A DNA stretch of 53,981 nucleotides, taken from the IMG/VR virus record IMGVR_UViG_2529292919_000008. One strand, 5' to 3'. Every line of letters starts with the position of its first letter. Positions within the stretch are counted from its first letter, which is position 1. The DNA comes from a virus (taxonomy: Duplodnaviria > Heunggongvirae > Uroviricota > Caudoviricetes). This document shows, in pieces, positions 16,131 through 33,038 of this stretch. The position numbers were made by a program, and so were the translations under genes. The notes below the pieces were generated by a model. The model was not told the origin of the DNA. It saw nothing but the letters and a program-made list of their open reading frames with translations, and searched no databases.

Positions 16131-16210
16131 TTTAATTTGTTTTTAATTGTTATTTAAAACAGGCGTAAACCCGCCGGGGCTGGCTTACGCCTGAATCTGA
16201 GGGATTCATT

Positions 16211-16927: not shown

Positions 16928-16929
16928 CG

Positions 16930-17157: not shown

Positions 17158-17384
17158 ATATTGAATTTTATGACTATGGGGTTACTGCAAAAATCATTGT
17201 CACCTGCTGGTTCTGGGAGTTCCGTCGCTATTGCCGGGTTGTGGATGCGGCGCTGTTTGCGGCCCCTGAAGTGCACCATCAGAGCGGTGGCGGTCTTTTA
17301 ATGAGAACCGTCATCTACGGTAAGACGGTCCCGATGTTACGGGCGTTTAAAGTGGCAAAACAGGAGGCTGGCAATGGTCATTGA
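17154..17384 (+). CDS. Hypothetical small early protein
   Basis: 76-aa ORF with ATGA overlap to the upstream gene. Confidence 0.3.
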   Translation: MNIEFYDYGVTAKIIVTCWFWEFRRYCRVVDAALFAAPEVHHQSGGGLLMRTVIYGKTVPMLRAFKVAKQEAGNGH

Positions 17385-17664
17385 TAAAACGATAACGATA
17401 GATGTGGCCATGAATACAGGTCTGGCGCTTATCGGTTATGGCTATATCACTTTTATGTCATTCAGGTGGTTGATTTCTTCGGTCTTTAAACAATGTGAAA
17501 AACGTCGCTGCAAAGACAAGCGCGTGAAGGCACTAAATGCGTTTAATGACGCTTTTGATATTGACCGTATGCAACAGGGCGACCCGGCACGCGTAATTAC
17601 CCGGGGAGATGTCGTGATTTTGGTATACCGGAGTGAAAAAAATGAGCAGGAGGCGGCGCAGTGA
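17374..17664 (+). CDS. Hypothetical small membrane protein
   Basis: 96 aa with one hydrophobic segment (GLALIGYGYITFMSFRWLISSVF). Confidence 0.3.
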   Translation: MVIDKTITIDVAMNTGLALIGYGYITFMSFRWLISSVFKQCEKRRCKDKRVKALNAFNDAFDIDRMQQGDPARVITRGDVVILVYRSEKNEQEAAQ

Positions 17665-17821
17665 ACCAGCAAACCAGAATAAGCGATAAGAGTCTGACCA
17701 GACTGATTGCCGATGCGGACAAGGTGCTGGAGCGGAACACCCCGGTTGCCGATGAGGAATGGTGGCAGGATTTCCGGGCCGCAATGCTGGAACTTCAGGA
17801 ACGTCGTCGGGAGGAGTTGAA

Positions 17822-18088
17822 GTGAGTGGATCAAATTGTCGAATTAATGGCAATCGAATAAAGCCGTGTGCTGCATTGGCAAAGTCTCTTGAGCGTGATG
17901 CTGAATGCTCAGTAAGAAAAGGCTTACTGCTATACAAAATCTGGAATGAGAGTTTAACCCGTGGACCTGATTTGGTGATGTTGCGTTCCGGTGAGTTTTC
18001 TAAATCACCTATTCGAGTCTCATTTTGCCCGTTTTGTGGTGAAAGTCTGAAAACATGGAAAAAGGAGGCAGCCAGTGAGCGAGATTAA
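17822..18088 (+). CDS. Hypothetical protein with CPFCGE zinc-ribbon-like motif
   Basis: GTG start overlapping the stop of an unlisted 54-codon ORF (17661-17825). Confidence 0.3.
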   Translation: MSGSNCRINGNRIKPCAALAKSLERDAECSVRKGLLLYKIWNESLTRGPDLVMLRSGEFSKSPIRVSFCPFCGESLKTWKKEAASERD

Positions 18089-18932
18089 CTATCAGGCACT
18101 GCGTGAGGCGGCAGAGGCCGCGAAGGGGGATACGACGTGGCAGAACCTACAGGCTTTTCGTGCTGTGGCTACGCCGGAGGTTGTGCAGGCGTTGTTGGAT
18201 GAAAACGAAAGACTGTGTCGCGATCTGATAGCTCGTAATGGTGAGGTTGAAGGGCTTCGGAAGTGGGCAGAAGAACTGGAGGCACGGGAAATAAAACCAG
18301 CCAAAGGCGAAGTTCTTGTCGTTGTATCTGGTTTTACTGGTTGCGGAAAAAGCGCCATTGCCGGGGAAATAGAAATCGCGATGAAGGCTATTGGTGTACC
18401 GGTTAAGTGGACTAATGGCGATGCAGAAAAGCGCATGACTGGCGCTGACTGGCTGACAGCAATTGAGATGTACAAACCAACTGTGCGCATCGTGGAAACT
18501 AATGTGCCACTGCCGCAGGCATTCGCATCAAAGGAGAGTGATATGACCACTATAACCAGAGAAAACGCGGAGATTAAATCATTCATCACTGGTTTCCTGA
18601 GCGACCCGGCGCACGATAACCAATCTTCAAACAGCCTGCTTGCCAATGTGTTTCGTATCGCGCTGGCATCGCTGGAAGCAGAGCCGGTGGCATGGATGCG
18701 TGATGACGCAGATGGTCGTGAGTATAACGCTCGCAACGAATTTTCTTATGGAGGGAGAGGCATTCCACTCTACGCTGCCCCGCCAGCAACGGTGGTGCCG
18801 GAATTTGAAACATGGTTTAACAGCCAGGAGTCAGGGAGGAGTATATGCAGCACACAGATTCGTCGTTCCCTTCAGGAAATTTCATGGAACGCCTGCTGCG
18901 CCGCCATGCTTCAGGGTAAGGGAGGTGAGTAA
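18075..18932 (+). CDS. Ead/Ea22-like protein with Walker A P-loop
   Basis: N-terminus YQALREAAEAAKGDTTW...ATPEVVQALLDENERL resembles the Ea22-like family. It is followed by a beta-strand plus P-loop, EVLVVVSGFTGCGKSAIAGEI (GxxxxGKS). Confidence 0.45.
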   Translation: MSEINYQALREAAEAAKGDTTWQNLQAFRAVATPEVVQALLDENERLCRDLIARNGEVEGLRKWAEELEAREIKPAKGEVLVVVSGFTGCGKSAIAGEIEIAMKAIGVPVKWTNGDAEKRMTGADWLTAIEMYKPTVRIVETNVPLPQAFASKESDMTTITRENAEIKSFITGFLSDPAHDNQSSNSLLANVFRIALASLEAEPVAWMRDDADGREYNARNEFSYGGRGIPLYAAPPATVVPEFETWFNSQESGRSICSTQIRRSLQEISWNACCAAMLQGKGGE

Positions 18933-19290
18933 TGCGTGTGGCATGTATCGGCTTGTTACCGTATCCGACTCGATTTTGGGCTTCTGCGCTAATTGCAAAG
19001 CCGCATGTCCTGATGGCTGACAGCATCATCCCGGCACCGAAACGCCGTACAGGCATTGCGGCGGCGAGACGAGCAGCAAAGAAACGCAGGAGAACAAAAC
19101 GATGAAAAATCGTAAGGCAAAAATTCTGTTAGCTCGCAGAAACGGTGTTGGGGTCTGGCGATGGTTGAGGATTAGTAACAGACGAGTGAGGTTGACGGGG
19201 TGTTGCGGGGTGATGTTGCACAGCTGTTGCAAAAAGCCCAGCGCGGCGCAAAACCGCAGGAAAAATCACGGTATGTAAAGGAGGTGCCAG

Positions 19291-19695
19291 GTGAAGAAAA
19301 TGGTTTTTGTGGCGGCATTGCTGACCGTTACCCAACAGGCTTCAGCAGTTATTGTGGCATCTGCCGCTGCGACTACGGCTGCCGCAGCTGCTGCGAACTC
19401 TGCGAATATCGCAAGCCAACAGGAGCAGGACGCTGCTAACGCATCAGCCAGTGCTCTCCCGATTTTTGTTAAGGGCAGTAAGCTAAATCTGGGGTTCATA
19501 ACGTGCGGTAAGCGTTCTTATGAAGCTGTAGGCTCACTGGGATGTACGGTATATGGCGACAGTGAGAGCAGAGAAATTCCATGGAAAACGTGGCCCGGAT
19601 ACGTTCTTGGTTCGAAGCTCCCGGCCAGTTATGAGGTAAACGCCGTGTCGTTTGATCACTATAACGGCGTGGCAACTGTCTATTTCACATACTGA
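19291..19695 (+). CDS. Secreted protein with signal peptide and Ala/Thr-rich linker
   Basis: MKKMVFVAALLTVTQQASA signal-like N-terminus, then low-complexity AAATTAAAAAANSANIAS and a Cys-containing C-terminal domain. Confidence 0.45.
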   Translation: MKKMVFVAALLTVTQQASAVIVASAAATTAAAAAANSANIASQQEQDAANASASALPIFVKGSKLNLGFITCGKRSYEAVGSLGCTVYGDSESREIPWKTWPGYVLGSKLPASYEVNAVSFDHYNGVATVYFTY

Positions 19696-19736
19696 GTTCC
19701 GGCATGAAATTTTCTGAATCACGGAGTAACAACCTG

Positions 19737-19922
19737 ATGAAAACTATCACCGTAACGGTTGAAATCGACGTTCCTGATAACGCAACGGACAATGATATTG
19801 CTGATTTTGTCGATGTCGAGTACGGGGAGTGCGGAAAAATGGCACTTGATAACCCATGCCGGACAGATGGAACGGAAATACTCGATGCCAGATGGGAGCA
19901 CGGCCCCGATTACGCGGGTTGA
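19737..19922 (+). CDS. Hypothetical small acidic protein
   Basis: 61 aa from MKTITVTVEIDVPDN. Confidence 0.3.
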   Translation: MKTITVTVEIDVPDNATDNDIADFVDVEYGECGKMALDNPCRTDGTEILDARWEHGPDYAG

Positions 19923-19941
19923 TTGAACAGTAATCAAACGC

Positions 19942-19986
19942 AGACCAAAACATGTGTTTTGGTCTGCCAAAAGTAGTGTTTTGGTC
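19942..19986 (+). promoter_or_regulatory. Operator-like palindrome AGACCAAAAC-N4-GTTTTGGTCT plus extra GTTTTGGTC half-site
   Basis: Perfect 10-bp inverted repeat at 19942-19965 and a third half-site at 19978-19986, ending 3 nt before the ATG at 19990. Confidence 0.45.
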
Positions 19987-19989
19987 ATT

Positions 19990-20268
19990 ATGAAGATTGA
20001 ACAAATCGGAATGGCAGCTTTCAGGCAACAGGCTGAAAGCGGTGGCGTGGATGAGTTCGTCGTGCAGCGGTTCGGTGGTGTGTATCACCTCTTCGCTGTG
20101 AATCGCCGCGCTGGGGTGTCCTATTTTCTACAGGAACGCCGTGGCGATTACAAGACGTGGCTGTCTCTTGATCGTGCCGCCGCGTTCTTGTCAGGGATTG
20201 GCGTTTCACGTTTTACCGTACGTTTTGAGGATAACAAACATGCTGAAAAAGATGATCGGGGCCATTAA
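19990..20268 (+). CDS. Hypothetical protein downstream of operator-like palindrome
   Basis: 92 aa from MKIEQIGMAAFRQQ. 3' end overlaps the gemA start. Confidence 0.35.
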   Translation: MKIEQIGMAAFRQQAESGGVDEFVVQRFGGVYHLFAVNRRAGVSYFLQERRGDYKTWLSLDRAAAFLSGIGVSRFTVRFEDNKHAEKDDRGH

Positions 20269-20638
20269 AGCCGGTCAGGCGTATCTGGGGTGGGATGATG
20301 CCCTTTATCGCCAGACGCTGGCCCGCCTGACCGGTAAAACCAGCACCACACGCTGCAATCTCAATGAACTGCGCATCATCCGGGAATACATGCACGAACA
20401 GGGATTCCCGCGCAAGGCACCCGCCGGTAAAGGTCGCCGCCCCCGTGTTGCAATGAGCAGAAAATCGGTATTATCCAAAATTGAAGCGTTGCTGGCTGAT
20501 GCCGGTCGTTCCTGGGGGTATGCGGAAGGACTGGCATCTCACATGTATAAGCAACATGTGATCGAATGGCTGACGGATGAACAGCTTTTCGGGGTGATGG
20601 TGGCGCTGGTTAAAGATTCAAGAAGGAGGAGTAAATGA
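20240..20638 (+). CDS. gemA: GemA-like regulatory protein (Mu gp16 family, DUF1018)
   Basis: ...AGQAYLGWDDALYRQTLARLTGKTSTTRCNLNELRIIREYMHEQGF... resembles Mu GemA. Located just before Mor, as in Mu. Confidence 0.65.
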   Translation: MLKKMIGAIKAGQAYLGWDDALYRQTLARLTGKTSTTRCNLNELRIIREYMHEQGFPRKAPAGKGRRPRVAMSRKSVLSKIEALLADAGRSWGYAEGLASHMYKQHVIEWLTDEQLFGVMVALVKDSRRRSK

Positions 20639-21138
20639 TTAAAAAACGGTATTTTCTTTTAGTAGCGTTCATTTTGTCTTTTCCTGCCGTTGCTGAATGG
20701 CACACATGGGTACAAAAAGATGCTTTTGATGATCAACAAACAGCCATGATGGTGGGTATTGGAACAATGGATTTTGGGATTGCTTTAGACTGTTCGAATG
20801 ACTCACTATTCGCTGGTATTACAAAAGAAACAGATAAAGTTAACATTGCGTTATTCGGTTCATCAAAAGATTTAATATTTAGGATAGACGAATTTCCAGC
20901 AGTAAAGACCACAGGGGTACTCGCTGCACGAAATGAAAAAATGTATATTTATAAAATAGAGGACGAACAAAAAATCAAAGAGTTGTTATCTTATCTTCGA
21001 AAAGCCCAAAAACGTGTTTTAGCTGGTGTAAAAGAACCGAGTGAAGAACGAGGCGCATCGTTTAATGTAACACCGACAGGTTCAACAACCGCTGTTAATA
21101 AATTTATCAAAGCCTGTAACATCAAGATTCCAGAGTAA
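20635..21138 (+). CDS. AT-rich moron: secreted protein with signal peptide
   Basis: ATGA overlap with the gemA stop. Signal-like MIKKRYFLLVAFILSFPAVA then EW. Codon composition visibly AT-rich against GC-rich flanks. Followed by an intrinsic terminator. Confidence 0.5.
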   Translation: MIKKRYFLLVAFILSFPAVAEWHTWVQKDAFDDQQTAMMVGIGTMDFGIALDCSNDSLFAGITKETDKVNIALFGSSKDLIFRIDEFPAVKTTGVLAARNEKMYIYKIEDEQKIKELLSYLRKAQKRVLAGVKEPSEERGASFNVTPTGSTTAVNKFIKACNIKIPE

Positions 21139-21145
21139 CTTAATA

Positions 21146-21174
21146 GCCGCCCCTGCCATGTAGGGGCTTTTTTG
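21146..21174 (+). terminator. Rho-independent terminator after the moron
   Basis: GC stem (GCCGCCCCT / AGGGGC) followed by TTTTTTG. Confidence 0.6.
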
Positions 21175-21236
21175 TGGTCTGTACAGGCGATCATGTATGG
21201 CTATAATAACAGTAAGTTACTACCGGAGACGCCATC

Positions 21237-21704
21237 ATGCAGACCTTCAGTGAAACAGATCTTCGCGATGCGCAGGCACTGCTGCCCGATTCCGTGCAGC
21301 AACTGATTAGCGTGATTGGCTTCCCCGCCCTGACCCGGTTAATCCGTTCTTTTGGTGGCGTGACGTTAAGCGGTAAAACCGGCGCACACGCCGAACGCAC
21401 CGGCGGTGTCCATGCCCTGTTACATGATGTGCTGACCGAAGACGAAATCAACAAACTGATCCGCTTTCTTGGCGGTGCGCCGTTTTACATTCCCCGTTGC
21501 GATCATGCGTTACGTGCCCTGCGTAACACCCGTTTTATGGCAGATTTACAGCAGCATGTAAAAGACGGATGCTCACACCGGCAGGCGCTGGCACTACTCT
21601 GTCCCCGTTACGGGATTTCAGACCGGTACGCATGGCAGCTGATACACCGACGACAAAAGCAGACTTCGCTGAAAAGCCCCACCCAGGTGGGGCTTTTTGA
21701 TTAA
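21237..21704 (+). CDS. mor: Mor/C-family transcriptional activator
   Basis: 155 aa with C-terminal HTH-like RQALALLCPRYGISDRYAWQLI. Position after gemA, as for Mu mor. Confidence 0.55.
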   Translation: MQTFSETDLRDAQALLPDSVQQLISVIGFPALTRLIRSFGGVTLSGKTGAHAERTGGVHALLHDVLTEDEINKLIRFLGGAPFYIPRCDHALRALRNTRFMADLQQHVKDGCSHRQALALLCPRYGISDRYAWQLIHRRQKQTSLKSPTQVGLFD

Positions 21705-21731
21705 TGGGCCTCAGAAAAAAGGAGACACGAA

Positions 21732-22019
21732 ATGATGCGTTCTGACACCGATATCGACTATGCAGTACTCGGTGAATATACCGCATTTTCAGACAAGGCC
21801 CGGGATGCAGCCCGTCGCCGACATGCTGAAATGTGCAGTTTATCCAGTTACCTGGCGAAACAGGCCCAAAGCCCGGAATCAGTAACGAATCATGATGAAG
21901 TGCTGTCAGCCGTAAACAGAATAATTGACGCAGAACGGGAAATGCGTAATGCCGTGGAAAGAGCTAACCTGCTGGCGCGGGCATGTTATAAGCCACCATT
22001 AAAACTCGCTTCTCTTTAA
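21732..22019 (+). CDS. Hypothetical protein
   Basis: 95-aa ORF after mor. Confidence 0.3.
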   Translation: MMRSDTDIDYAVLGEYTAFSDKARDAARRRHAEMCSLSSYLAKQAQSPESVTNHDEVLSAVNRIIDAEREMRNAVERANLLARACYKPPLKLASL

Positions 22020-22207
22020 CCCATCCAGATAATCAACCTGCCGGGGGTGCTGAACACCCCCAGCAGTACCCACCACAGCATACCGTTTACCCTGTCCACT
22101 CAGACCACAAGACACCTTAAGGGATAGCGCCCGGCAAAAGTCATTCTGTGCCTTTGACCGGGTGTTATTTACGGGCCGTCAGTGGCTCAGATTTACAGGA
22201 GAAACTC

Positions 22208-22600
22208 ATGTCTGAACCCTTATCAGGCGGCGGAGCTGTGGCAGTCACCATCGGTGGTGCCAGTGTGTTTGGTCTTCTCACCAATACCGATTTCGGGGTC
22301 GTGGTGGGCGCGTTTGCCGGGGCGCTTTTTGTTGTCACGCAGCAGAAAGAAATCCCGGTATGGCGAATGGCTATTCACCTGCTCGTCGCGTTTGTGGTTG
22401 GCGTTCTGGGGGCTGGCGTGGCTGCGTCACTGATGCAGTGGCTGACCCACTACAACGACAAGCCACTCGATGCATTGTGTGCGGTCGGTGTCTCGGCGTT
22501 ATCCATCAAGATACTGACCTTTCTTTATCAACAGGAAATTTCATCGCTGTTCGGCCTGTTTTCCAGACTGCGCGGCGGAGGGGGTGGAAATGGAAAGTAG
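22208..22600 (+). CDS. Putative holin-like membrane protein
   Basis: AGGAG ribosome-binding site. About three hydrophobic helices. Immediately upstream of the endolysin. Confidence 0.4.
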   Translation: MSEPLSGGGAVAVTIGGASVFGLLTNTDFGVVVGAFAGALFVVTQQKEIPVWRMAIHLLVAFVVGVLGAGVAASLMQWLTHYNDKPLDALCAVGVSALSIKILTFLYQQEISSLFGLFSRLRGGGGGNGK

Positions 22601-22886
22601 CCTTGCCGGTATCGTGAACGTCTGGCTGTGTCTCGCCATTGTGCTGGGGTTGTTTGTGTATCGTCGCCACGGTGCGGCGCATAAACCGATGATTACCTGG
22701 CTGGCGTACTGGCTGATGCTCGGCTACATCATCATCCCGTTCCGCTGGCTGTCCGGTACATACACGCACTCCAGCTGGCTGGTTGTGGCGCTGAATCTGG
22801 TTTTCTGTGCGCTTATCGTGTGGGCGCACGGGAATTTGTCAAAAATCCTTTCGTTACTGAGGCATCCACATGAAATCAAAAGATGA
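22590..22886 (+). CDS. Putative membrane protein (holin/antiholin-like)
   Basis: Two or three hydrophobic segments (IVNVWLCLAIVLGLFVY, ITWLAYWLMLGYIIIPF, WLVVALNLVFCALIVWA). Confidence 0.35.
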   Translation: MESSLAGIVNVWLCLAIVLGLFVYRRHGAAHKPMITWLAYWLMLGYIIIPFRWLSGTYTHSSWLVVALNLVFCALIVWAHGNLSKILSLLRHPHEIKR

Positions 22887-23415
22887 CATTTTTGATGAAG
22901 TCCTGGGCAAAGAAGGCGGTTACGTCAATCACCCGGACGATAAGGGCGGTCCGACCAAATGGGGCATTACGGAAAAAGTCGCCCGCGCCCACGGATATCG
23001 TGGCGATATGCGCGATTTAACCCGCGAACAGGCGCTGGACATCCTTGAAGCCGATTACTGGTATGGCCCGCGATTTGACCAGATCGCCGCATTATCCCCT
23101 GATATTGCCGCAGAGCTGTGTGATACCGGTGTGAATATGGGGCCAACCGTGGCGTCCAGAATGCTTCAGCGCTGGCTGAATGTGTTCAATCTGCGCGGCA
23201 GGCTGTACCCGGATATGGACGCAGACGGACGCATCGGGCCTCGTACCATCAGTGCATTGCGCGCCTTCCTGAATAATCGCGGTCAGGACGGTGAACGGGT
23301 GATGCTGACGGCCCTGAACTGTACGCAGGGGGACCGCTATCTGGAACTGGCGGAGAAACGCGAGGCTAACGAATCGTTTGTTTATGGCTGGCTGAAGGAG
23401 CGCGTGGCGATATGA
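22870..23415 (+). CDS. Endolysin, GH108-type muramidase with peptidoglycan-binding domain
   Basis: N-terminus IFDEVLGKEGGYVNHPDDKGGPTKWGIT is the GH108 signature as I recall it. C-terminal region looks like PG_binding_3. Confidence 0.7.
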   Translation: MKSKDDIFDEVLGKEGGYVNHPDDKGGPTKWGITEKVARAHGYRGDMRDLTREQALDILEADYWYGPRFDQIAALSPDIAAELCDTGVNMGPTVASRMLQRWLNVFNLRGRLYPDMDADGRIGPRTISALRAFLNNRGQDGERVMLTALNCTQGDRYLELAEKREANESFVYGWLKERVAI

Positions 23416-23594
23416 CGCGTCAGCACTGGACCCACAGAACGCCACGTAAAGCCGCGCGCTGTGTTCTGGCCCTGTTTCTGGTGATGTTGCTTCCGGTGGG
23501 ATGCACAGACATTAACAGAACGGGACAGCTGTTAGACGCGGCGGCGCAGGTCTGCCGGATTATTGACGGCATCCGGCAGTGTTCACAGAACTGA
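23412..23594 (+). CDS. Putative lipoprotein (spanin-like)
   Basis: 60 aa with lipobox-like LPVGC after a hydrophobic leader. Directly after the endolysin. Confidence 0.4.
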   Translation: MTRQHWTHRTPRKAARCVLALFLVMLLPVGCTDINRTGQLLDAAAQVCRIIDGIRQCSQN

Positions 23595-23821
23595 TTTTTC
23601 GAAGGTCTGACACAGTGAGCATTATCAGATTTACAGAATACAGAGGTTCAGGAGGTGCTGGCGCTGTCATGGTGCTCGCTGAATGCATCACCCATTTTTA
23701 CCGTCAGTACGGTACACATGATGGCACGGTCATTGAACTGGATACCGGGAAAAACGTGTTTGTTCTTGAAAATCCCGACGAAGTTCGGCGCAGGATTGAA
23801 CAGGCTCAGAAGGACACTTAA
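23579..23821 (+). CDS. Hypothetical protein
   Basis: ORF between the lysis module and the gp27-like gene. Start uncertain (ATG 23579 or GTG 23615). Confidence 0.3.
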   Translation: MFTELIFRRSDTVSIIRFTEYRGSGGAGAVMVLAECITHFYRQYGTHDGTVIELDTGKNVFVLENPDEVRRRIEQAQKDT

Positions 23822-24321
23822 TGGCGTGGTCACAGGATATCAGGGACAAAGTCCGTAACGGGTACATCTTTGACCAGCTTCCGCTGGATATCGTCGCCAT
23901 GAAGTACGCCGTGCCGCACGATACCGCGCGGCGCTGGAAAACGCAGGCAATGAAGAACGGCGACGACTGGGACAAGCTGCGGGCCGCGCACGCGCTCGCC
24001 GGTGACGGGCTGGAAAGTGTCGCCCGCACCGTACTTATCAGTCTGGTGGTGAAGTGTCAGACGACGCTTGAGCGACTGAACCAGAACCCGGACATCCCGC
24101 CGCAAGAGTCCGTCGAACTGCTGGCGAGTCTGTCTGACAGTCTCAGTAAGGCGGTGGCCAGCAGTAAAAAAATCCTGCCGGAAACCGACCGGCTGGCCAC
24201 GGCACTGGAAGTGGTGCAGCGGCTCGGCGCGTTCATCAAGGAGCGTCACCCGGCACAGTATGCCCCGTTTCTTGAGGTGCTCGAAGGCTTCGCTAAAGAG
24301 CTTGAGGATAATTTCAGTTAA
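23821..24321 (+). CDS. Mu gp27-like protein (putative small terminase / DNA-binding, DUF1804-like)
   Basis: 166 aa at the position of Mu gene 27, ahead of TerL. Confidence 0.45.
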   Translation: MAWSQDIRDKVRNGYIFDQLPLDIVAMKYAVPHDTARRWKTQAMKNGDDWDKLRAAHALAGDGLESVARTVLISLVVKCQTTLERLNQNPDIPPQESVELLASLSDSLSKAVASSKKILPETDRLATALEVVQRLGAFIKERHPAQYAPFLEVLEGFAKELEDNFS

Positions 24322-24367
24322 CCACAGCGGCCCGGTTTTCCGGGCCGTCTGATATTCGGGATTTGTA

Positions 24368-25108
24368 ATGCAAAAACAGATTATTGGTAACGCAACGTTG
24401 TATTGCGGTGATGTTCTTGATGTGCTGCCAGCGTTATCCGAACGTTTTGATGCCGTCATTACCGACCCGCCTTACAGCAGTGGTGGCACACATAAATCAG
24501 ACCGCAGCATAGCCCCTTCGGACAAGTATGTCGGTCACACCCAGTATGCCGAGTTCACCGGCGATAACCGCGACCAGCGCAGCTGGGCGTTCTGGTGTTC
24601 CATGTGGATTTCTCATGCATTGCACAGGCTGAATCCCGGCGGTTATTTCATGGTGTTCAGTGACTGGCGACAACTACCGGCGCTTACCGATGCATTTCAG
24701 GCCGGTGGTGTGCTGTGGCGTGGTCTGGTTGTCTGGGATAAAACGCTTGCTTCCCGTGCGCCACACACCGGCTATTTCCGGCATCAGGCCGAGTATGTGG
24801 TCTGGGGCAGCAACGGAAAACTCGACAAATGCCCGCACGGTGGCCCGTTCCCGGGTGTGATTACACAGCGTGTTGTCCCGTCCGAAAAACTGCACATGAC
24901 GGCAAAGCCGGTTCAGTTGATGGCCGAACTGGTTAAACCGCTGGCACCGGATGCGCACGTTCTCGATCCGTTTATGGGAAGCGGCACCACCGCCATCCCG
25001 GTACTTGCCCGTGGCGGACGGTTTACCGGCATTGAAATGACTAACCAGTATTTTGATATCGCCTGCGCACGTCTCGAAAAAGCGCAGGCAGAAGCAGCGC
25101 AGGTGTGA
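24368..25108 (+). CDS. DNA methyltransferase (N6-adenine or N4-cytosine), orphan
   Basis: Catalytic DPPY motif (AVITDPPYSSGG) near the N-terminus and AdoMet-binding FMGSGTT near the C-terminus. No adjacent restriction endonuclease. Confidence 0.8.
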   Translation: MQKQIIGNATLYCGDVLDVLPALSERFDAVITDPPYSSGGTHKSDRSIAPSDKYVGHTQYAEFTGDNRDQRSWAFWCSMWISHALHRLNPGGYFMVFSDWRQLPALTDAFQAGGVLWRGLVVWDKTLASRAPHTGYFRHQAEYVVWGSNGKLDKCPHGGPFPGVITQRVVPSEKLHMTAKPVQLMAELVKPLAPDAHVLDPFMGSGTTAIPVLARGGRFTGIEMTNQYFDIACARLEKAQAEAAQV

Positions 25109-26750
25109 CGTGGCAAAACGTAAACTTTCCATTAAAGAGTTTCAGAGAAGCTTACAGGAGTACATCGCCAACCTCCGCCAGACCATTGAGGCTGAATGTC
25201 TGGGGTTCGATGTTAACCCGCAGGCCACACAGGCCCGTCGGGCGGCAGTCTGTGACCCGGTGACGGGCTACGATTATTTTGTCGAAAACTATTTCCCGCA
25301 TTACGTCCGCAACCCGGCAAAAAGTGAGCTGCATAAATACCTGTTCAGCCGTCTGCCACAGGTTGTGGCAAGCCCGGACCCGGAGAACGACGCCATCGCC
25401 GCCCCCCGTGGTGAAGCAAAATCCACGCTGGTGACTCAGCTGTTTACCCTGTGGACCATTATCCGGGCCATTAAACATTACCCGGTCATCATTATGGACA
25501 GTATCGACCAGGCTTATCCGATGCTGGAAGCCATCAAGGCTGAACTGGAATTTAACCCCCGTTTAAAAAACGATTTCCCGGAAGTGTGCGGACAGGGGCG
25601 CGTCTGGCGTATGGGGACTATTGTCACGGCCAACAATATCAAGGTGACCGTCGCCGGTAGTGGTAAAAAACTGCGTGGTCTGCGCCACGGTCCGTACCGT
25701 CCTGACCTGGTCATCCTCGACGACATCGAGAACGACGAGATGGTGCGTAACCCGGAGCAGCGCGACAAGCTGCATAACTGGCTCACCAAAACCGTGATGC
25801 CGCTGGGCGAGGCTGGCGGTAAAACCGATATTATTTATATCGGAACCATCCTGCATTACGACTCCGTACTCTCGCGCACGCTGAATAACCCGATGTGGAA
25901 AACGGCCCGCTTTAAGGCCGTCATTCAGTGGCCTGCCAATATGAAGCTGTGGGACGAGTGGGAAGAACTCATCCGCAACAAACAGCCGGAAGCGGCGGAG
26001 GCACTTTATCAGCAGAACGAAGCCGATATGCTCGCCGGGTCGGTGGTGTCATGGGCGGCGCGTCCACTGCTGGCACTGATGAAAATCCGTGTCCGTGACG
26101 GTCACGACACCTTTGATTCTGAATACCAGAACGACCCGGTCAGCGGTGAAGATGCGCTGTTTGCGGGCTGCATTAAGTTCTGGGTTAATCGTCTTGATGA
26201 ATGGGTGTTTTATGGTGCTGTTGACCCCAGTCTCGGGAAGAAAAACAAAAACCGCGACCCGTCGGCCATTCTCGTGGGGGGCTTTAACCGTTTTACCGGC
26301 ATTCTGGATGTGGTTGAAGCCGATATCCGCCGACGACTGCCGAATAAAATTATCGAAGACGTGATTAAGTATCAGCGGGAATATCACTGCCTGTGCTGGT
26401 CGTTTGAATCCGTCCAGTTTCAGGAGTTTCTGCGTACCGTGCTGGTTGAGCGTTCGGCGGCGCTGGGTGTGCCGGTTCCGGCGCTGCCGGTCATCCCATT
26501 GGAGGATAAGGCACTGCGTATCGAATCCCTTCAGCCGCATATGGCTAACGGCCTGATTCGTATCAGTCCGGCACATCAGACGCTGATTGACCAGCTGCGC
26601 CACTACCCCAAAGCCGACCACGATGATGGCCCGGACTGTCTGCACATGCTGTGGACGCTGGCGGTTTCGCGCAGCGCAAAATTTCAGATACACACCCCAC
26701 GCAGCACCGGGCGTGACCGTGGCGGGCGTTTTGGTTCAGGAGGATGGTAA
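25053..26750 (+). CDS. Terminase large subunit (Mu gp28-like)
   Basis: 565 aa directly upstream of the portal, with a nuclease-like C-terminal region. True start may be GTG 25110, immediately after the methyltransferase stop. Confidence 0.7.
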   Translation: MISPAHVSKKRRQKQRRCDVAKRKLSIKEFQRSLQEYIANLRQTIEAECLGFDVNPQATQARRAAVCDPVTGYDYFVENYFPHYVRNPAKSELHKYLFSRLPQVVASPDPENDAIAAPRGEAKSTLVTQLFTLWTIIRAIKHYPVIIMDSIDQAYPMLEAIKAELEFNPRLKNDFPEVCGQGRVWRMGTIVTANNIKVTVAGSGKKLRGLRHGPYRPDLVILDDIENDEMVRNPEQRDKLHNWLTKTVMPLGEAGGKTDIIYIGTILHYDSVLSRTLNNPMWKTARFKAVIQWPANMKLWDEWEELIRNKQPEAAEALYQQNEADMLAGSVVSWAARPLLALMKIRVRDGHDTFDSEYQNDPVSGEDALFAGCIKFWVNRLDEWVFYGAVDPSLGKKNKNRDPSAILVGGFNRFTGILDVVEADIRRRLPNKIIEDVIKYQREYHCLCWSFESVQFQEFLRTVLVERSAALGVPVPALPVIPLEDKALRIESLQPHMANGLIRISPAHQTLIDQLRHYPKADHDDGPDCLHMLWTLAVSRSAKFQIHTPRSTGRDRGGRFGSGGW

Positions 26751-26753
26751 TTA

Positions 26754-28349
26754 ATGGCACAGCTTGTTGATATTTACGGACGCCCGCTGAAACGTGAGGT
26801 GCTCAAAACCACGCAGTCGGTCAGAGTGGCAGAACGGCTGCGCATTTATCCCGACCACCCGTCCCGTGGTCTGAATATCAGAAAACTGCCGCGCATTCTG
26901 GAAGCTGCCGAACGCGGTTATCTTCCGGCGCAGGCGATGCTGTTTGCGGATATGGAAGAACGTGATGGCCACCTGTTCGCCGAGATGGAAAAGCGCAAAA
27001 AAGCATTGCTGACGCTGGACTGGTCGGTGGAGCCGCCCCGCAATGCCTCGAAAGCAGAAAAGGAGCTGGCCGCCGCCGTGGATGAATGGCTGCACGGTAT
27101 CCCGGACATGGAGGACATCATCCTCAACGGGATGAGCAGTGTCGGTTACGGCTTCAGCTGTCAGGAAATCAGCTGGGCGTTCGTGGATAAAACGTGGTTA
27201 CCGGATGCGGTGACGCTGCGCCCGCATAACTGGTTTATTACCCTGCCGGAACACAATGACGAACTCCGGCTGGATGACGGCAACCGTGGGGAAGACGGTA
27301 AGGACGGTTCCGCATTGTGGCCGTTCGGCTGGCTGGTTCACCGTTACAACGCCCGGTCGGGGTTCCTGGGTTCATCCGGCCTGTTCCGCGTACTGGTCTG
27401 GCCGTATCTGTTTAAAAACTTTGCGCTGCGTGATATGGCGGAATTTCTGGAGATTTACGGCCTTCCGGCGCGCATTGCGTACTATGCACAGGGCACCAGT
27501 GACGAGGACCGGGACAACATTCTCGAAGCCCTGGTCAATCTGGGCCATGAAGCGGTGGCAGCACTGCCGCAGGGTAACGAGATTGAATTCAAGGAGGCTG
27601 CCTCCGGCGGGCCGGAGGCGTTCATGTCGATGGTGGAATGGGCGGAGCGCACCACCTCAAAAGTGATTCTGGGCAGTACGCTGACCAGCCAGGCTGACGG
27701 TAAAACCTCCACCAACGCACTGGGTAATGTCCATAACGAGGTCCGGCACGACATTCTGACCGCTGATGCACGCCAGCTGTCCGGCATGTTCAGCAGTCTG
27801 ATACAGATGATGGCCAGCCTCAACGGCTGGCAGGATATCCCGTCACGCCGTCTTCCGCGCCTGGTGTTTGATGTGCAGCAGGAAGCTGACATTAAGGGCG
27901 TGGCGGACGCCGTCAGCGTGTTGCTCAACAGTGTGGGTATGAAGGATATCCCGGCGTCGTGGGTACGCAAAAAAACCGGTATCCCCACCCCGAAAGACGG
28001 CGAAGAGGTACTGGTGCCGGCGGCACAGCGTCTCCCTGTGCTGGCGGGCCTCAGCCAGCTGCGTGAGCGACTGAATGTTGCTGCACTCAGTCAGCAGGAC
28101 AACGGAGAGGACGACCCGGCACAACGCGCCATCGACCGGGCAGAACTTCCGGCAGAGGCCATCGCGCAGGGAATGAACGAACTGGTGGCCCCACTGGTGC
28201 AGGCCATACAGGAAGGCCGGGATGCAGACGAGGCCATGAACGTACTGGCGGAAGCATGGCCGGAACTGCCGGATGACACGCTGCGGCAGTTGCTGACGCA
28301 GGCATTCTTTGTGGCGGATATCTGGGGGCGACTGAATGCCGACAGCTGA
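26754..28349 (+). CDS. Portal protein (Mu gp29-like, DUF935)
   Basis: 531 aa; position between TerL and the F-like gene. Confidence 0.75.
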   Translation: MAQLVDIYGRPLKREVLKTTQSVRVAERLRIYPDHPSRGLNIRKLPRILEAAERGYLPAQAMLFADMEERDGHLFAEMEKRKKALLTLDWSVEPPRNASKAEKELAAAVDEWLHGIPDMEDIILNGMSSVGYGFSCQEISWAFVDKTWLPDAVTLRPHNWFITLPEHNDELRLDDGNRGEDGKDGSALWPFGWLVHRYNARSGFLGSSGLFRVLVWPYLFKNFALRDMAEFLEIYGLPARIAYYAQGTSDEDRDNILEALVNLGHEAVAALPQGNEIEFKEAASGGPEAFMSMVEWAERTTSKVILGSTLTSQADGKTSTNALGNVHNEVRHDILTADARQLSGMFSSLIQMMASLNGWQDIPSRRLPRLVFDVQQEADIKGVADAVSVLLNSVGMKDIPASWVRKKTGIPTPKDGEEVLVPAAQRLPVLAGLSQLRERLNVAALSQQDNGEDDPAQRAIDRAELPAEAIAQGMNELVAPLVQAIQEGRDADEAMNVLAEAWPELPDDTLRQLLTQAFFVADIWGRLNADS

Positions 28350-29502
28350 CGATGTTGACCTGGGTTATGCGTACACCCTGAAGCCGGAAGAAGCGATTAA
28401 GTATTTCGAAAGCAAGGGATACGTTATCGGCTTCCGCTGGCACGATGTGAAGGACATCGCCAACGCCCGGGCGTTCACGGTGGCGGGCGTGCTGAAACTG
28501 GATGTGCTGAAGGATATCCGTGATGGCCTGACGGCCGCACTGGCTGACGGCGGGACGTTCCGGGAGTTTGCTGCACAACTGGAACCACTGCTGGAATCAA
28601 AAGGCTGGCTGGGTAAAAAGCTGATTGTGGACGAGGACACCGGCGAACTGCACGGCAGGCAGCTGACGCCGCGCCGGTTGCGCACGATATTTGATACCAA
28701 TATTCAGTCGTCCTACAACGCCGGACGCTATCAGCAGCAGATGGCGAACGTGGCCGACCGGCCTTATTTTGAGCGCGTGGCGGTGATGGACCTTCACACC
28801 CGCCCGAAACACGCCGCCCTGAACGGTTTTACCGCCCGGGCGGATGACCCGGTCTGGGAGTATTTCTACGCGCCGGACGGATACGGATGCCGCTGCCGTA
28901 TCCGGGCGCGTTCGGCGTCTGATGTGGAGAAATATGGCCTGACGGTGCAGAGCAGCGAGGGGCGACTGGTTGAGGTTGAGCAGGAATATGGCCAGCCGGG
29001 CCAGACCATCAGAACAATGGGGCTGAAGATGCCGGATGGCTCCGTATACACCGCTGACCCGGGCTTCGGTTTTAACCCCGGCAAAGTGGCATGGCAGCCG
29101 GAACTGGAAAAATACGATTACCGCAGCGCTCGCCAGTATGTCACCGGCACCCTGACCGGGCCGGATTTTGCCCGGGGACTGGCGAACGTCAGCGAACTGG
29201 ATGCGCGCCAGCGATATCCGCTGGCCATCCGTTCACCAGAACAGGTCGCCGCCACGGGCGCTGCACGGCAGACGGTAAACCTTACGGCTGACGTTATGAA
29301 GCGCCTCAGTGCAACAGACACGCCCCCGACCGCCGCCGATTATGTGCTGATGCAGCAGACCATCGAACGGGCGGAGCATGTCACACAGGACGGCAACGCG
29401 TGGCGGTATGCGTTACAGTCGGGCGACCACTGGTCGGTGGTGACGGTTGAGGATGGCGCGCTGACAGACTGGGTTATGCAGGATACCCCGGAGGCATCAT
29501 GA
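28336..29502 (+). CDS. Head morphogenesis protein (Mu F-like)
   Basis: 388 aa after the portal; overlaps the portal stop. Confidence 0.65.
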   Translation: MPTADDVDLGYAYTLKPEEAIKYFESKGYVIGFRWHDVKDIANARAFTVAGVLKLDVLKDIRDGLTAALADGGTFREFAAQLEPLLESKGWLGKKLIVDEDTGELHGRQLTPRRLRTIFDTNIQSSYNAGRYQQQMANVADRPYFERVAVMDLHTRPKHAALNGFTARADDPVWEYFYAPDGYGCRCRIRARSASDVEKYGLTVQSSEGRLVEVEQEYGQPGQTIRTMGLKMPDGSVYTADPGFGFNPGKVAWQPELEKYDYRSARQYVTGTLTGPDFARGLANVSELDARQRYPLAIRSPEQVAATGAARQTVNLTADVMKRLSATDTPPTAADYVLMQQTIERAEHVTQDGNAWRYALQSGDHWSVVTVEDGALTDWVMQDTPEAS

Positions 29503-30050
29503 GCAACGGTAAACTGGATATTAAGATTGATTTAAGCGCGTATAACACCACGCTGGGGAAACTGATTCGTTCCGTGAAGGACCGGCGCGATCTGATGACG
29601 GCACTTGCGGGTTCCATGCTGGATGCGGTTGAGACTAACTTTGAACAACAGGGCCGCCCGAAATGGATGGGCTGGAGTCCCTCCTATGCGAAGCGACGCG
29701 GCCCCGGGCAAATCCTTCAGAAGTCCGGGCGACTGGCTGCCAGTATCCGCTCTGCGGTTAACAATAACGAGGCCACAGTCGGGACAAACGTCCGTTATGC
29801 CCGGATCCACAACGAAGGCGGCGAAATCCGCCATCAGGCACGGACGCAGAACCTGTATTTTAAACAGTACAAAAACGGCAGCGTCAGCACCCGCTTTGTG
29901 AAAAAGCGCAACAGTAATTTTGTGCAGAGCGCAACGGTCGGAGCGTATACGGTCAACATGCCCGCGCGCCCCTTCCTTCAGCTTGTGCAGGACGACATCG
30001 ACGAGCTGGAGAACACCGCAAACCGCTATTTTGCGCGTGTGATTGACTGA
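29499..30050 (+). CDS. Virion morphogenesis protein (Mu G-like)
   Basis: 183 aa at the Mu G position. Confidence 0.5.
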   Translation: MSNGKLDIKIDLSAYNTTLGKLIRSVKDRRDLMTALAGSMLDAVETNFEQQGRPKWMGWSPSYAKRRGPGQILQKSGRLAASIRSAVNNNEATVGTNVRYARIHNEGGEIRHQARTQNLYFKQYKNGSVSTRFVKKRNSNFVQSATVGAYTVNMPARPFLQLVQDDIDELENTANRYFARVID

Positions 30051-30259
30051 ATGGCGACAAACGCGCTGTAATCGCCTTTGACGACATAAACGCCTCACGG
30101 ATGAGGCATTACAGCACCGCACCCCATAAATGCCGTCAGAATCGTTTTTAAAAGGGTTTTAAAAACGGTTTTATTTTCCCTTTTATCCTTTCCCGTTATG
30201 GCAGGGTGCTGAACACCCTCCACAGTACCCCGTGTTCCCCTTCCGTCATCATACCGCGT

Positions 30260-31375
30260 ATGAAACTGAAAATTGCGGCGTTAAGCCTCGAAATTACTAA
30301 AGCAACCCACAGCGAAATCCAGCTGTTTCCGGCAGGCGAGTTCAGTGCGGTGGATGGTCGCCCACATACCGATGAAGTCGAAAGCGGTAAATGGGTGCTG
30401 ACTGCCGAACTGGCCGCGCAGCTTGTCGCACAGGTGGCAGCCCGTACCACGCCTTTTGTCATTGATTACGAACATCAGACGCTGCGCGCCGTAAACAACG
30501 GCAAGCCCGCCCCGGCGGCGGGCTGGTTCAGCCAGGTGGAATGGCGAGAAGGTTCGGGCCTGTATGCCATCGGTGTGGAGTGGACGGAGAACGCGGCGGC
30601 CATGATTGCCGCCGGTGAGTACAAATTTATTTCCCCGGTATTTGGATACAACCGGCGCGGCGAAGTCATCGAACTGTTACACGCCGCACTGACCAATACC
30701 CCGGCGCTGGACGGTATGGACGCGGTCATGCTGGCTGCGGCCAGCCGTCTGGCGAGTCTGTCAACTGAAACGGAGACCACAACAGTGGATGAAGAACTGT
30801 TAAACGATTTGCTGTCCAGTCTGCGCTGGATGCTTAACCTCCCGGTTACCTCAACGGCGGAAGATATCAAAAACGAGCTGCAAAAGGTCGTTGACATGAT
30901 TTCGAACGGTCAGGGAACGGCGGCGGCATCCGTCAGCCTGCTGGCCCTGCTGAATCAGAAAGACGAGCAAATCGCCAGCCTGTCAGCCAGTGCCTATGAC
31001 CCGTCAAAACACATTTCCCTTGCTGCCTTCGAAGAACTCCAGGGGCGTTATGCCGCACTGGCGCAACAGTCCGGTGAGGCCGAAGCCGGGGCACTGATTC
31101 AGGCGGCGCTGTCTGACGGGCGACTGCTTCCGGCACAGGAAGGCTGGGCGAAAGATTACGCCGGTCGCGATATCAACGGCTTTAAGTCCTGGCTGGAGAA
31201 CGCACCGAAACTTGTTGCGCTCAGTCAGACCCAGACCGGCGGCAAAGCCCCCAAAACGCCGTCGCCTGCCCCGGCGCAGATTAAAACCGGCGATGACGTC
31301 GATGTCGATATCGCCATTTGTTCAATGATGGGCGTTGATCCAGAGGATGTCGCCCGTTACGCAGGAGACGAGTAA
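30260..31375 (+). CDS. Prohead protease / scaffold (Mu I-like)
   Basis: About 371 aa from MKLKIAALSLEI with an Ala/Gln-rich coiled-coil C-terminal half. Upstream of the major head gene. Confidence 0.55.
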   Translation: MKLKIAALSLEITKATHSEIQLFPAGEFSAVDGRPHTDEVESGKWVLTAELAAQLVAQVAARTTPFVIDYEHQTLRAVNNGKPAPAAGWFSQVEWREGSGLYAIGVEWTENAAAMIAAGEYKFISPVFGYNRRGEVIELLHAALTNTPALDGMDAVMLAAASRLASLSTETETTTVDEELLNDLLSSLRWMLNLPVTSTAEDIKNELQKVVDMISNGQGTAAASVSLLALLNQKDEQIASLSASAYDPSKHISLAAFEELQGRYAALAQQSGEAEAGALIQAALSDGRLLPAQEGWAKDYAGRDINGFKSWLENAPKLVALSQTQTGGKAPKTPSPAPAQIKTGDDVDVDIAICSMMGVDPEDVARYAGDE

Positions 31376-31771
31376 ATGGATCGCAATACCCCCTATCGTG
31401 ACGGAGAACTGAACCCGGTGCCGGTTGCCGCTGCGACCGAAATTTTTGGCGGTCATATGGTGGCCGTTAACGCATCCGGTTATGCCGTTCCGGCCAGTGC
31501 CACGGCCTCACAGATTACGCTGGGCGTGTCTGATGGCTGGGCGGATAACAGTACCGGCAGCGATGGCGATGTCACCGTTCTGGTGCGTTGCGGCAAAGAT
31601 TTTCTGATGGTGAACAGCACCTCAGACCCGGTCACACAATCGCAGGTCGGCAAGCTGTGCTACGTGGAAGACAGCGTAACCGTGGCAAAAACCGACAACA
31701 GCAGCGCCCGTCCTGTCGCCGGGAAAGTGATCGGCATCTGTGGCGATGGCGTCTGGGTTCATTTCAGTTAA
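31376..31771 (+). CDS. Hypothetical head protein (Mu Z position)
   Basis: 131 aa between I and the major head gene. Confidence 0.35.
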   Translation: MDRNTPYRDGELNPVPVAAATEIFGGHMVAVNASGYAVPASATASQITLGVSDGWADNSTGSDGDVTVLVRCGKDFLMVNSTSDPVTQSQVGKLCYVEDSVTVAKTDNSSARPVAGKVIGICGDGVWVHFS

Positions 31772-31781
31772 GGAGCAAAAC

Positions 31782-32690
31782 GTGTTAGTCAACGTTAAAA
31801 ACGTCAAACAGATTTTTATCAATCTGAAGGCCACCTTCCAGAAAGCCTTCGACCAGTCGCCAACTGACTGGCAGAAGGTGGCAATGGAAGTGCCATCAAA
31901 CGGCAAGGAAAACGACTACAGCTGGTTAAGTCGTTTCCCGAAAATGCGCGAGTGGATTGGCGACAAGGTCGTTAAATCACTGGCGGCATTTAACTACACC
32001 ATCCGTAACAAGGACTGGGAAGCCACGGTTGAAGTCGATCGTAACGACATCGAGGACGACCAGATTATGGGCTATGCCCTTCAGGCAAAAGGAGCCGGAC
32101 AGTCGGCGGCAGAACTCCCGGCAGATATTGTGGCGTCCCTTATCAGTAACGGTTTTACCAATCCCTGTTACGACGGCCAGATGTTCTTTGATACCGACCA
32201 CCTGGTCGCCGGTAAATCGGTGTCCAATAAAGGCACCAAAAAACTCAAAGTTGGCTCGCTTGCCGAGGCGAAAGCCTCCTACGGTGCCGCCCGTACTGCC
32301 ATGCGCAGCCTGAAAGATGACGAAGGCGCATCCCTCAAAATTCGCCCGAATCTGCTGGTTGTGCCACCGGCGCTGGAAGATGACGCGAACTACCTGATGA
32401 CCGCCGAGAAGTTCCCGGACGGTACGCCGAACCCGTACCGCAGTACCGCCGACGTGCTGGTGATGCCGGAGCTGGCGTCGGATTCTGCGTGGTTCCTGTT
32501 TGACACCACCAAACCGGTGAAACCGCTGATTTATCAGCTGCGTAAAAAGCCTGTTTTTGTGGAGCAGACGGACTACAACAGCGACAACGTGTTCAAGCGT
32601 AAGAAGTTCCTGTTTGGTGCCGAAGCGCGCTGTAACGGCGGTTACGGCTTCTGGCAGATGGCATTTGGTTCTGATGGTACGACGGAGTAA
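31782..32690 (+). CDS. Major head subunit (Mu T-like)
   Basis: AAGGAG then GTG start. About 302 aa at the Mu T position. Confidence 0.6.
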   Translation: MLVNVKNVKQIFINLKATFQKAFDQSPTDWQKVAMEVPSNGKENDYSWLSRFPKMREWIGDKVVKSLAAFNYTIRNKDWEATVEVDRNDIEDDQIMGYALQAKGAGQSAAELPADIVASLISNGFTNPCYDGQMFFDTDHLVAGKSVSNKGTKKLKVGSLAEAKASYGAARTAMRSLKDDEGASLKIRPNLLVVPPALEDDANYLMTAEKFPDGTPNPYRSTADVLVMPELASDSAWFLFDTTKPVKPLIYQLRKKPVFVEQTDYNSDNVFKRKKFLFGAEARCNGGYGFWQMAFGSDGTTE

Positions 32691-32693
32691 TGC

Positions 32694-33035: not shown

Positions 33036-33038
33036 CCC

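Follow-up and report, generated by a model that had tools for sequence, protein, structure and literature searches.

An orphan beta-class DNA methyltransferase gene as an optional late-operon cassette in Mu-like prophages of Escherichia coli

An orphan methyltransferase gene in a Mu-like prophage

A gene for an orphan, stand-alone DNA methyltransferase (MTase) of the beta class was present in a Mu-like prophage of Escherichia coli, between the genes for a DUF1804 protein and the large terminase (TerL), and among closely related prophages the same position was occupied in some copies and empty in others. The analysis covered a window of 53,981 bp, that is, the whole stretch of E. coli DNA that was analysed, inside which the prophage lies complete with its termini (Table 1). 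On balance, the combined evidence makes it rather probable that the enzyme methylates the phage DNA before packaging and guards the progeny against restriction. The protein is an experimentally uncharacterised phage-borne orphan beta-class MTase, a kind of enzyme that is already known.

Table 1. Coordinates of the prophage, the methyltransferase cassette and the neighbouring features in the window
Feature	Position	Strand	Basis or remark
Whole Mu-like transposable prophage, 36,406 bp, TG...CA ends	10250..46655	+	Termini and target duplication
5-bp target duplication AGTAC flanking the prophage	10245-10249 and 46656-46660		
Mor/C-family late transcription activator	21237..21704	+	Pfam Mor, PHROG 836; weak match to Mu C and Mor
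DUF1804 protein (PHROG 756 'DNA binding protein'; D3112 orf24-like)	23821..24321	+	Pfam PF08822, PHROG
GC-rich hairpin after the DUF1804 stop, 9-bp stem, TTTT loop	24327..24348	+	Fold prediction; within the 46-nt gap 5' of the MTase
Presence/absence cassette, 743 bp (MTase ribosome-binding site and nearly the whole ORF)	24357..25099	+	Genome survey, junction alignment
Orphan beta-class DNA amino-methyltransferase CDS	24368..25108	+	ATG to TGA, 246 aa; ORF, PF01555, PHROG 67, fold
Catalytic motif IV DPPY, residues 33-36	24464..24475	+	Read off the sequence; inside invariant TDPPYSSG (30-sequence alignment)
AdoMet-binding motif I FMGSGTT, residues 202-208	24971..24991	+	Read off the sequence; inside invariant LDPFMGS (30-sequence alignment)
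Large terminase, GTG start	25110..26750	+	PHROG 38, E = 6.8e-143; RefSeq terL start in sibling prophages
Mu-type portal (Portal_Mu)	start 26754		Profile match
Mu F	start 28336		Profile match
gin/pin invertase gene remnant	46445..46540	+	31 codons (46445-46537), 77% identical to the Mu Gin N-terminus, then stop

Motifs, family assignment and predicted fold

The MTase carries motif IV towards the N-terminal end and motif I towards the C-terminal end, which is the order of the beta class. The initial annotation had described the gene as an orphan MTase of this class from the two motifs and had proposed a profile search for assigning the family; the description held, and all three profile collections agreed. 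The protein matched Pfam N6_N4_Mtase PF01555 (E = 7.6e-24, 85.3 bits against a gathering cutoff of 26.7), PHROG 67 'DNA methyltransferase' (E = 8e-54) and, over its full length, the PADLOC 'MTase_II' model PDLC03321 (E = 9.8e-64), which was the best-matching PADLOC model and is labelled Type II MTase. The family match is far above the chance level. The protein remained below the cutoff of the plasmid leading-region methylase family NF010253 (PRK13699; 78.2 bits against 244, NCBIfam), to which M.EcoGIX presumably belongs.

An AlphaFold2 model, for which a 30-sequence alignment was the input, reached a mean pLDDT of 84.5 and a pTM of 0.84, with loops 34-70 and 131-137 as the only weakly predicted parts, and no discrete target-recognition domain could be seen in it. 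Foldseek comparison of the model against the PDB returned best matches that were all beta-class enzymes (E 1e-16 to 1e-10, TM about 0.65-0.76), headed by CcrM (6pbd), M.BceJIV (8urk), M1.HpyAVI (5hek/5hfj), M.MboIIA, M.RsrI and M.PvuII, the first three at E of about 1e-15. The same set of enzymes was recovered by a phmmer sequence search of the PDB, with E of about 1e-14 for CcrM, M.BceJIV and M1.HpyAVI. Motif order, Pfam score and a Rossmann-type fold superimposable on solved enzymes all agree with the beta class. The DPPY motif, rather than SPPY/F, suggests N6-adenine as the target base, following a rule of thumb.

The exact protein was already present in the databases as WP_001171798.1 / EHU24218.1, 'DNA-methyltransferase [Escherichia coli]', and its 90%-identity cluster comprised 440 sequences, mostly of full length. 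The literature search revealed no paper on the accessions or locus tags of the MTase or characterising any close homologue, and nothing specific on the methylase of the E2348/69 Mu-like prophage or on E. coli methylomes naming Mu-like prophage MTases.

The gene is kept by purifying selection. Comparison with six homologues gave dN/dS values of 0.07-0.27, and the segments TDPPYSSG, DWRQLP, RAPHTGYFRHQxEY and LDPFMGS were invariant, or nearly so, down to 55% identity in the 30-sequence alignment. Between the window allele and that of E2348/69, 38 of the 49 nucleotide differences fell within nt 181-360. Positive selection at residues 75-94, where the allele differences are clustered, was considered and rejected because synonymous changes share the same tract, and nt 181-360 is a recombination mosaic.

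Position in the late operon

The MTase gene is located 21.5 kb away from the right end of the prophage, in a tightly spaced block of genes on the same strand, which comprises the Mor/C-family activator, two holins, a GH108 endolysin, small ORFs, DUF1804, the MTase, TerL, the portal and F. The activator was the sole member of the Mor/C family found, and it lies upstream of this lysis-packaging operon. The MTase stop had been described as abutting the probable GTG start of terL, and this is correct: the TGA occupies 25106-25108, the GTG comes 1 nt later at 25110, and sibling prophages in RefSeq use the same start. Because the terL Shine-Dalgarno sequence AGGTG (25101-25105) falls within the final MTase codons and the stop is 1 nt from the GTG, translational coupling of the two genes is likely.

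A crude promoter scan of positions 20500-27000 gave a single sigma-70-like match, at 21180-21207 ahead of the Mor-family gene, and no promoter-like site near or upstream of the MTase. The hairpin downstream of DUF1804 has no T-run and was not called as a terminator. It is conserved in E. coli, Yersinia and Citrobacter, including the MTase-less E. coli copy tcmA_3; its interpretation as a terminator or regulatory element specific to the cassette was rejected, since it also occurs in MTase-less copies and is devoid of a T-run in E. coli, and it was assigned to the prophage backbone. A Com-like regulator ahead of the MTase, as found in phage Chuche, was likewise rejected, as there was no tblastn match and the two small upstream ORFs had no paired cysteines. 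The GC content (0.556) and GC3 (0.583) of the MTase gene were similar to those of the neighbouring genes.

A Type II restriction-modification system has an endonuclease gene adjacent to the MTase gene, whereas this MTase is flanked by DUF1804 and TerL. Searches for nuclease and defence families gave nothing in these two genes, among the prophage ORFs scanned (structural ORFs, flank ORFs and the majority of the unannotated ORFs in the early region) or in the sibling prophages as annotated by RefSeq. The statement that no restriction endonuclease is adjacent was thus borne out, and the MTase is an orphan.

Presence and absence among sibling prophages

The sibling set consisted of 55 complete E. 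coli genomes carrying DUF1804 and terL at 95% identity or higher; 36 of these carried the MTase and 19 did not. The matched span measured 2194 bp in the 19 MTase-less genomes compared to 2930 bp in those with the MTase. Among 5,426 complete E. coli genomes, 36 had MTase DNA at a minimum of 90% identity, under the annotation DNA methyltransferase, and it lay between DUF1804 and terL in every examined E. coli copy (B1172, E2348/69 and the records listed in the survey of siblings). The enteropathogenic (EPEC) strain E2348/69 (CP059840) carries the MTase prophage, which interrupts its eutC gene; RM9088 and STEC316 are further carriers of the MTase gene.

The junction alignment defined the cassette precisely. 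In the MTase-less tcmA_3, the hairpin is followed by GATATT, the 7 nt TGCATAC, CAGGTGTGAC and then the GTG of terL, and in the window the 743 nt at 24357-25099 stand where tcmA_3 has TGCATAC. Both forms, with or without the MTase, retain the hairpin and an intact terL ribosome-binding site.

The genes com and mom were absent from the examined siblings, both those with the MTase (B1172, E2348/69) and the one without it (tcmA_3). The idea that mom takes the place of the MTase in MTase-less siblings was rejected, as tcmA_3 has none. Because the siblings examined all lack mom, whether or not they carry the MTase, there has been no one-for-one Mom swap, and the MTase is an optional extra in a lineage without Mom, not a reciprocal replacement. 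The initial annotation had proposed a packaged-genome methylase in place of Mom; the element does lack mom, but the methylase is a 743-bp optional cassette (36 genomes with it, 19 without), and its siblings are without mom either way.

The DUF1804-MTase-TerL order was also present with an MTase of 80% identity in Citrobacter braakii, of 79% in Yersinia enterocolitica and of 68% in viral contigs. Because this order recurs in Citrobacter, Yersinia and viral contigs, presence of the MTase is probably ancestral in the clade, and its absence would be a secondary deletion. Since 19 of the 55 near-identical prophages are without the gene, its benefit, if any, is conditional.

Comparison with bacteriophage Mu

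In canonical Mu (NC_000929), gp27 (12316-12891) and gp28 (12899-14554) are separated by only 7 nt, which hold no gene, and the right end carries gin-com-mom, in agreement with the initial description of Mu as having no gene at the MTase position and mom at its right end. When Mu Com and Mom were compared with the whole window by tblastn, chance matches only were obtained (E > 0.7), which supports the earlier statement that the element is without mom. [quoted passage not shown]

The gene upstream of the MTase had been called gp27-like, which is appropriate by position but not by homology. Mu gp27 matched PF11985 (E = 1.3e-52), whereas the DUF1804 protein of the window matched only PF08822 (E = 2.8e-52), and neither Mu gp27 (tblastn) nor gp28 had a BLAST match in the window. 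Identity of the DUF1804 protein to D3112 orf24 and related proteins was about 50%, and the packaging module can be assigned by sequence comparison to the D3112 orf24 type. The portal was 38% identical to that of Mu. A nucleotide search with a 3.3-kb region against 50,697 deposited phage genomes returned no match; the lineage is known as prophages only.

Homologues and related modification systems

The MTase belongs to a very large family (more than 5,600 database matches at E ≤ 1e-20), and 151 of 162 related loci were without Mu-like neighbours (two annotated E. coli prophages included). In Mu-like prophages of Salmonella, a 62% homologue occupies another site in the late operon, the holin-lysozyme interval, while a lambdoid prophage of Methyloversatilis carries a 59% homologue in the early region. 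The P2-like phage Chuche has a 54% homologue immediately 3' of a Com-like translational regulator, and the arrangement in Smp131 is similar.

That mom-less Mu-like prophages carry an adenine methylase is not a new idea, as it dates from a paper of 2012. Drozdz et al. (2012) reported that FluMu, Pnm1 and a Haemophilus aegyptius prophage are without mom and carry the adenine MTases Hin1523, Nma1821 and Hia5 instead; MTases of this type protect DNA against many restriction enzymes, Hia5 and Hin1523 show almost no sequence specificity, and B3 ORF48 was also noted (PMC3299994). The window MTase resembles Hin1523, Hia5 and B3 ORF48 as a putative orphan adenine MTase of a Mu-like phage without mom, with restriction protection presumed or shown. 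The motif order is different, as the window MTase has DPPY at residue 33, whereas motif I precedes DPPY in Hin1523 and Hia5 (D191/D194) and DPPY is at 178-181 in B3 ORF48, an alpha/Dam-like order. The gene positions also differ. The MTases of FluMu, Pnm1 and H. aegyptius lie behind com at the mom position, and B3 ORF48 lies behind com in the tail-gene cluster, while the window MTase has no com and occupies the DUF1804-terL position; it is set apart from the Hia5/Hin1523 type by the motif positions given in PMC3299994. B3 ORF48 was rejected as a member of the same family on account of its DPPY position and the absence of BLAST similarity to the window MTase. Because the Hia5-type MTases of Mu-like phages differ in class, sequence and position behind com, the window MTase appears to be a convergent case of a known strategy, outside the Hia5/Hin1523 subfamily. 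The initial annotation had suggested an anti-restriction strategy different from that of Mom; such a strategy, with adenine MTases in the place of mom, had already been published in 2012 (PMC3299994).

True homologues were found in Escherichia phage Chuche (PP925824) and in Bordetella phage BPP-1 (Bpm), with 54% and 53% identity, respectively, over about 94% of the length. Both share the PHROG 67 / PF01555 subfamily and, like the window MTase, are phage-borne orphans; they belong, however, to other phage types (a P2-like myovirus and a podovirus) and occupy other genome positions. No experimental characterisation of the Chuche MTase or BPP-1 Bpm was found in the literature. M.EcoGII and M.EcoGI are likewise beta-class, orphan adenine MTases of E. 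coli prophages (PMC5778455, PMC7544214). Compared by description, they differ from the window MTase in length (349 aa versus 246 aa), in their non-Mu-like prophage and in being proven non-specific. Escherichia phages were outside the ten most frequent genera of the tblastn matches, and this scarcity suggests a distant relationship between M.EcoGII / M.EcoGI and the window MTase.

The cellular enzymes CcrM, M.BceJIV and M1.HpyAVI have the fold and motif order of the window MTase, and M1.HpyAVI is of similar size; unlike it, they are not phage late genes. Because they are only 20-23% identical to the window MTase, their specificities are not transferable. Mu Mom, which is regulated by C and Com and also via Dam/OxyR, is like the window MTase in the proposed role, namely a late adenine modification before packaging that blocks restriction. 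It differs in its regulation by C and Com and in its right-end location, and nothing homologous to it is present in the window. Mom is an enzyme of the acyltransferase superfamily that makes N6-carbamoylmethyl-adenine (PMC3299994).

Proposed role and alternative explanations

In the preferred reading, the cassette would supply an active-looking N6-adenine enzyme, the base being suggested by DPPY, as a single optional gene with no promoter of its own. Transcription would most likely occur only after induction, under the Mor/C-family activator, a late timing to which the gene order and the crude promoter scan point. The MTase would be translated just before the large terminase, probably coupled to terL, and may act as a homodimer by analogy with other beta-class enzymes, of which dimeric action is a general property (PMC7544214). 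Replicated phage DNA would then be methylated at the MTase target shortly ahead of headful packaging, and the progeny genomes would arrive in a new host with protection in place against those restriction enzymes whose recognition sites overlap the target. A site-specific MTase would shield only against such enzymes, which is far narrower than the protection conferred by Mom. Prophage MTases such as M.EcoGII and related E. coli enzymes are silent in lysogens and are thought to be activated at induction (PMC5778455, PMC4659465). Because the MTase lies in a late operon and lacks its own promoter, and because similar prophage enzymes stay silent in the lysogenic state, the methylomes of a lysogen and a cured strain are probably alike even if the MTase is functional.

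A bolder version, which we regard as unlikely, is that the MTase has relaxed or near-absent sequence specificity, like Hia5, Hin1523 and M.EcoGII, and truly takes over the function of Mom, with protection that is broad and a toxicity that requires strictly late expression. Non-specific adenine MTases of phages are known in Mu-like and lambdoid prophages (PMC3299994, PMC5778455). The MTase is compact, its model has no discrete target-recognition domain, and the Chuche homologue lies behind a Com-like regulator, as mom does in Mu, with Smp131 similar, which suggests that the family needs tight control. The window, however, has no com gene, and the MTase has no sequence relationship to Hia5 and Hin1523 (by published motif positions) or to B3 ORF48 (by BLAST), all of which have DPPY at about residues 180-194 in an alpha-type order. 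Furthermore, the nearest solved structures by fold, CcrM, M.BceJIV and M1.HpyAVI, are enzymes that we take to be site-specific, and small beta-class MTases are mostly site-specific. It is accordingly doubtful that a minimal beta-class adenine MTase of very relaxed specificity functionally replaces Mom here and is tolerated only by virtue of being made minutes before lysis. The adjacency to the terminase would be explained if methylation served the phage life cycle instead of restriction evasion, by marking the terminase or pac site, as Dam methylation marks the pac site of P1, or by tuning late genes. The gene does lie between DUF1804, in the putative small-terminase position, and terL, to which it is probably coupled, and this position is conserved across three genera. 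Packaging cannot depend on the MTase, however, because 19 of the 55 siblings, otherwise at least 95% identical, do without it, their junction being clean and their terL ribosome-binding site preserved; nor is its position bound to the terminase, because homologues sit in the lysis cassette of Salmonella prophages or in the early regions of other phages. A life-cycle role is thus considered improbable.

An accessory cassette with presence/absence polymorphism is typical of morons, and orphan MTases can serve as epigenetic regulators; a lysogenic-conversion gene would be expressed from the prophage and would alter the host methylome for regulation or 'vaccinate' the chromosome against incoming restriction-modification systems. 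Such a role is decidedly improbable, given that there is no promoter-like site upstream of the MTase, that the nearby hairpin belongs to the backbone, that the gene is tightly packed in the same orientation amid essential late genes with GC and GC3 close to those of its neighbours, and that prophage MTases of a similar kind are kept silent during lysogeny (PMC5778455, PMC4659465). Very improbable is the view of the MTase as an inactive or decaying passenger, or as one half of a restriction-modification system with an unrecognised nuclease, even though the gene is dispensable in 19 siblings and its best PADLOC model is labelled Type II MTase. The low dN/dS, the catalytic and AdoMet motifs that stay invariant down to 55% identity and the 440-member cluster of mostly full-length proteins speak against a passenger, while an indel that spans the MTase alone, between two conserved phage genes, speaks against half of a system.

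Significance for Mu-like prophages

The natural siblings with and without the MTase, at 97% backbone identity, constitute a ready isogenic pair for gauging the anti-restriction value of an orphan methylase. The MTase is small, identification of its target would extend the catalogue of specificities by one, and the enzyme might be a compact tool if its specificity proved relaxed. In the latter case, it would represent a new 'methylate-everything' enzyme of very small size, its family would be unrelated to that of Hia5, and P2-like phages would carry a Com-controlled sister gene. Neither the isogenic pair nor the small enzyme alters the present understanding of phage anti-restriction. If the proposed role is true, the MTase would be a further case of a temperate phage that protects its own DNA in advance, in a Mu-like lineage often found in pathogenic E. 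coli, EPEC E2348/69 among them.

Insertion of the Mu-like element into a second prophage

The sequence flanking the Mu-like transposable prophage on both sides belongs to a second, HK97/lambda-like prophage on the minus strand, which is split by the element. When the 36,406-bp element and one copy of its AGTAC target duplication were removed in silico, a 666-aa prohead protease-major capsid ORF was regained; therefore, transposition of the Mu-like prophage inactivated the capsid gene of the resident prophage. The features of both prophages are listed in the table.

Features of the Mu-like prophage and of its flanks
Feature	Position (nt)	Strand	Location or remark
HK97/lambda-like prophage genes (tape measure, tail tube, portal, protease, TerL)	1-10249 and 46661-53981	minus	both flanks
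AGTAC target duplication copies	10245-10249 and 46656-46660		flanking the Mu-like prophage (10250-46655)
Putative ORFs, 134 and 113 aa	17533-17937 and 19747-20088	minus	early/semi-essential region
167-aa ORF, signal-peptide-like N-terminus (MIKKRYFLLVAFILSFPAVAEW...)	within 20635-21207		between GemA-like and Mor-family genes
Strong terminator-like hairpin	21149-21167		3' of 167-aa ORF
Predicted near-consensus sigma-70 promoter	21180-21207		3' of 167-aa ORF and hairpin
GC-rich hairpin, GCGGCCCGG-TTTT-CCGGGCCGT	24327-24348		shortly 3' of DUF1804 stop
Tail-fibre region, G-segment-like (opposed tail-fibre and assembly genes)	44188-46418		adjoins invertase remnant
gin/pin-type invertase remnant	46445-46540		31 codons, then stop

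Early region and late operon

The two putative minus-strand ORFs had no match in Pfam or PADLOC, and no family match was obtained for the 167-aa ORF, the product of which may be a secreted moron; the sibling prophage of E2348/69 carries a different gene at this spot. Only one activator of the Mor/C family could be detected (21237-21704), whereas Mu possesses both Mor and C. In this respect the prophage resembles SuMu and the Mannheimia Mu-like phages, for which absence of the middle gene C has been reported (PMC4553209).

The core stem of the hairpin after DUF1804 (GGCCCGG/CCGGGCC) was unchanged among the relatives from E. coli, Yersinia, and Citrobacter and was shared by copies devoid of the methyltransferase (MTase) gene, while the loop varied (TTTT, TTAT, or ACCT). 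The Citrobacter copy is followed by TTTT. Such a hairpin could act in the late operon by attenuating transcription, by stabilizing the RNA, or as a site of processing.

Inversion of the tail-fibre segment

The sibling prophage of strain tcmA_3 contains the same invertase remnant, yet its G-segment-like segment is reversed compared to that of the window; therefore, the segment has been inverted without any resident invertase. A Pin-type enzyme supplied in trans, such as e14 pinE, was perhaps the driver; the first 158 nt match the pinE region in approximately 900 genomes.

Mosaic structure and homologues of the methyltransferase

Two allelic forms of the beta-class MTase were found, differing almost wholly in a 180-nt tract (24548-24727; residues ~61-120), where 38 of the 49 differences from the E2348/69 allele are located. 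This clustering of synonymous and non-synonymous changes together indicates a recombination mosaic. In the predicted structure model, the tract spans helix 70-85 and strand 88-98.

Two Salmonella enterica contigs with Mu-like prophages encode a 62% MTase homologue (4001-4753) between the holin and lysozyme genes, whereas the gene precedes terL in the present prophage. Related phages have acquired this same cassette at no fewer than two different points of the late operon. The P2-like Escherichia phage Chuche (PP925824) carries at 8794-9736 a Com-like gene ('control of modification') that overlaps a 54% homologue of the beta-class MTase, an arrangement resembling the com/mom overlap in Mu. Com-type translational control therefore serves at least three unrelated modification enzymes, namely Mom, alpha-class MTases, and the beta-class MTase family.
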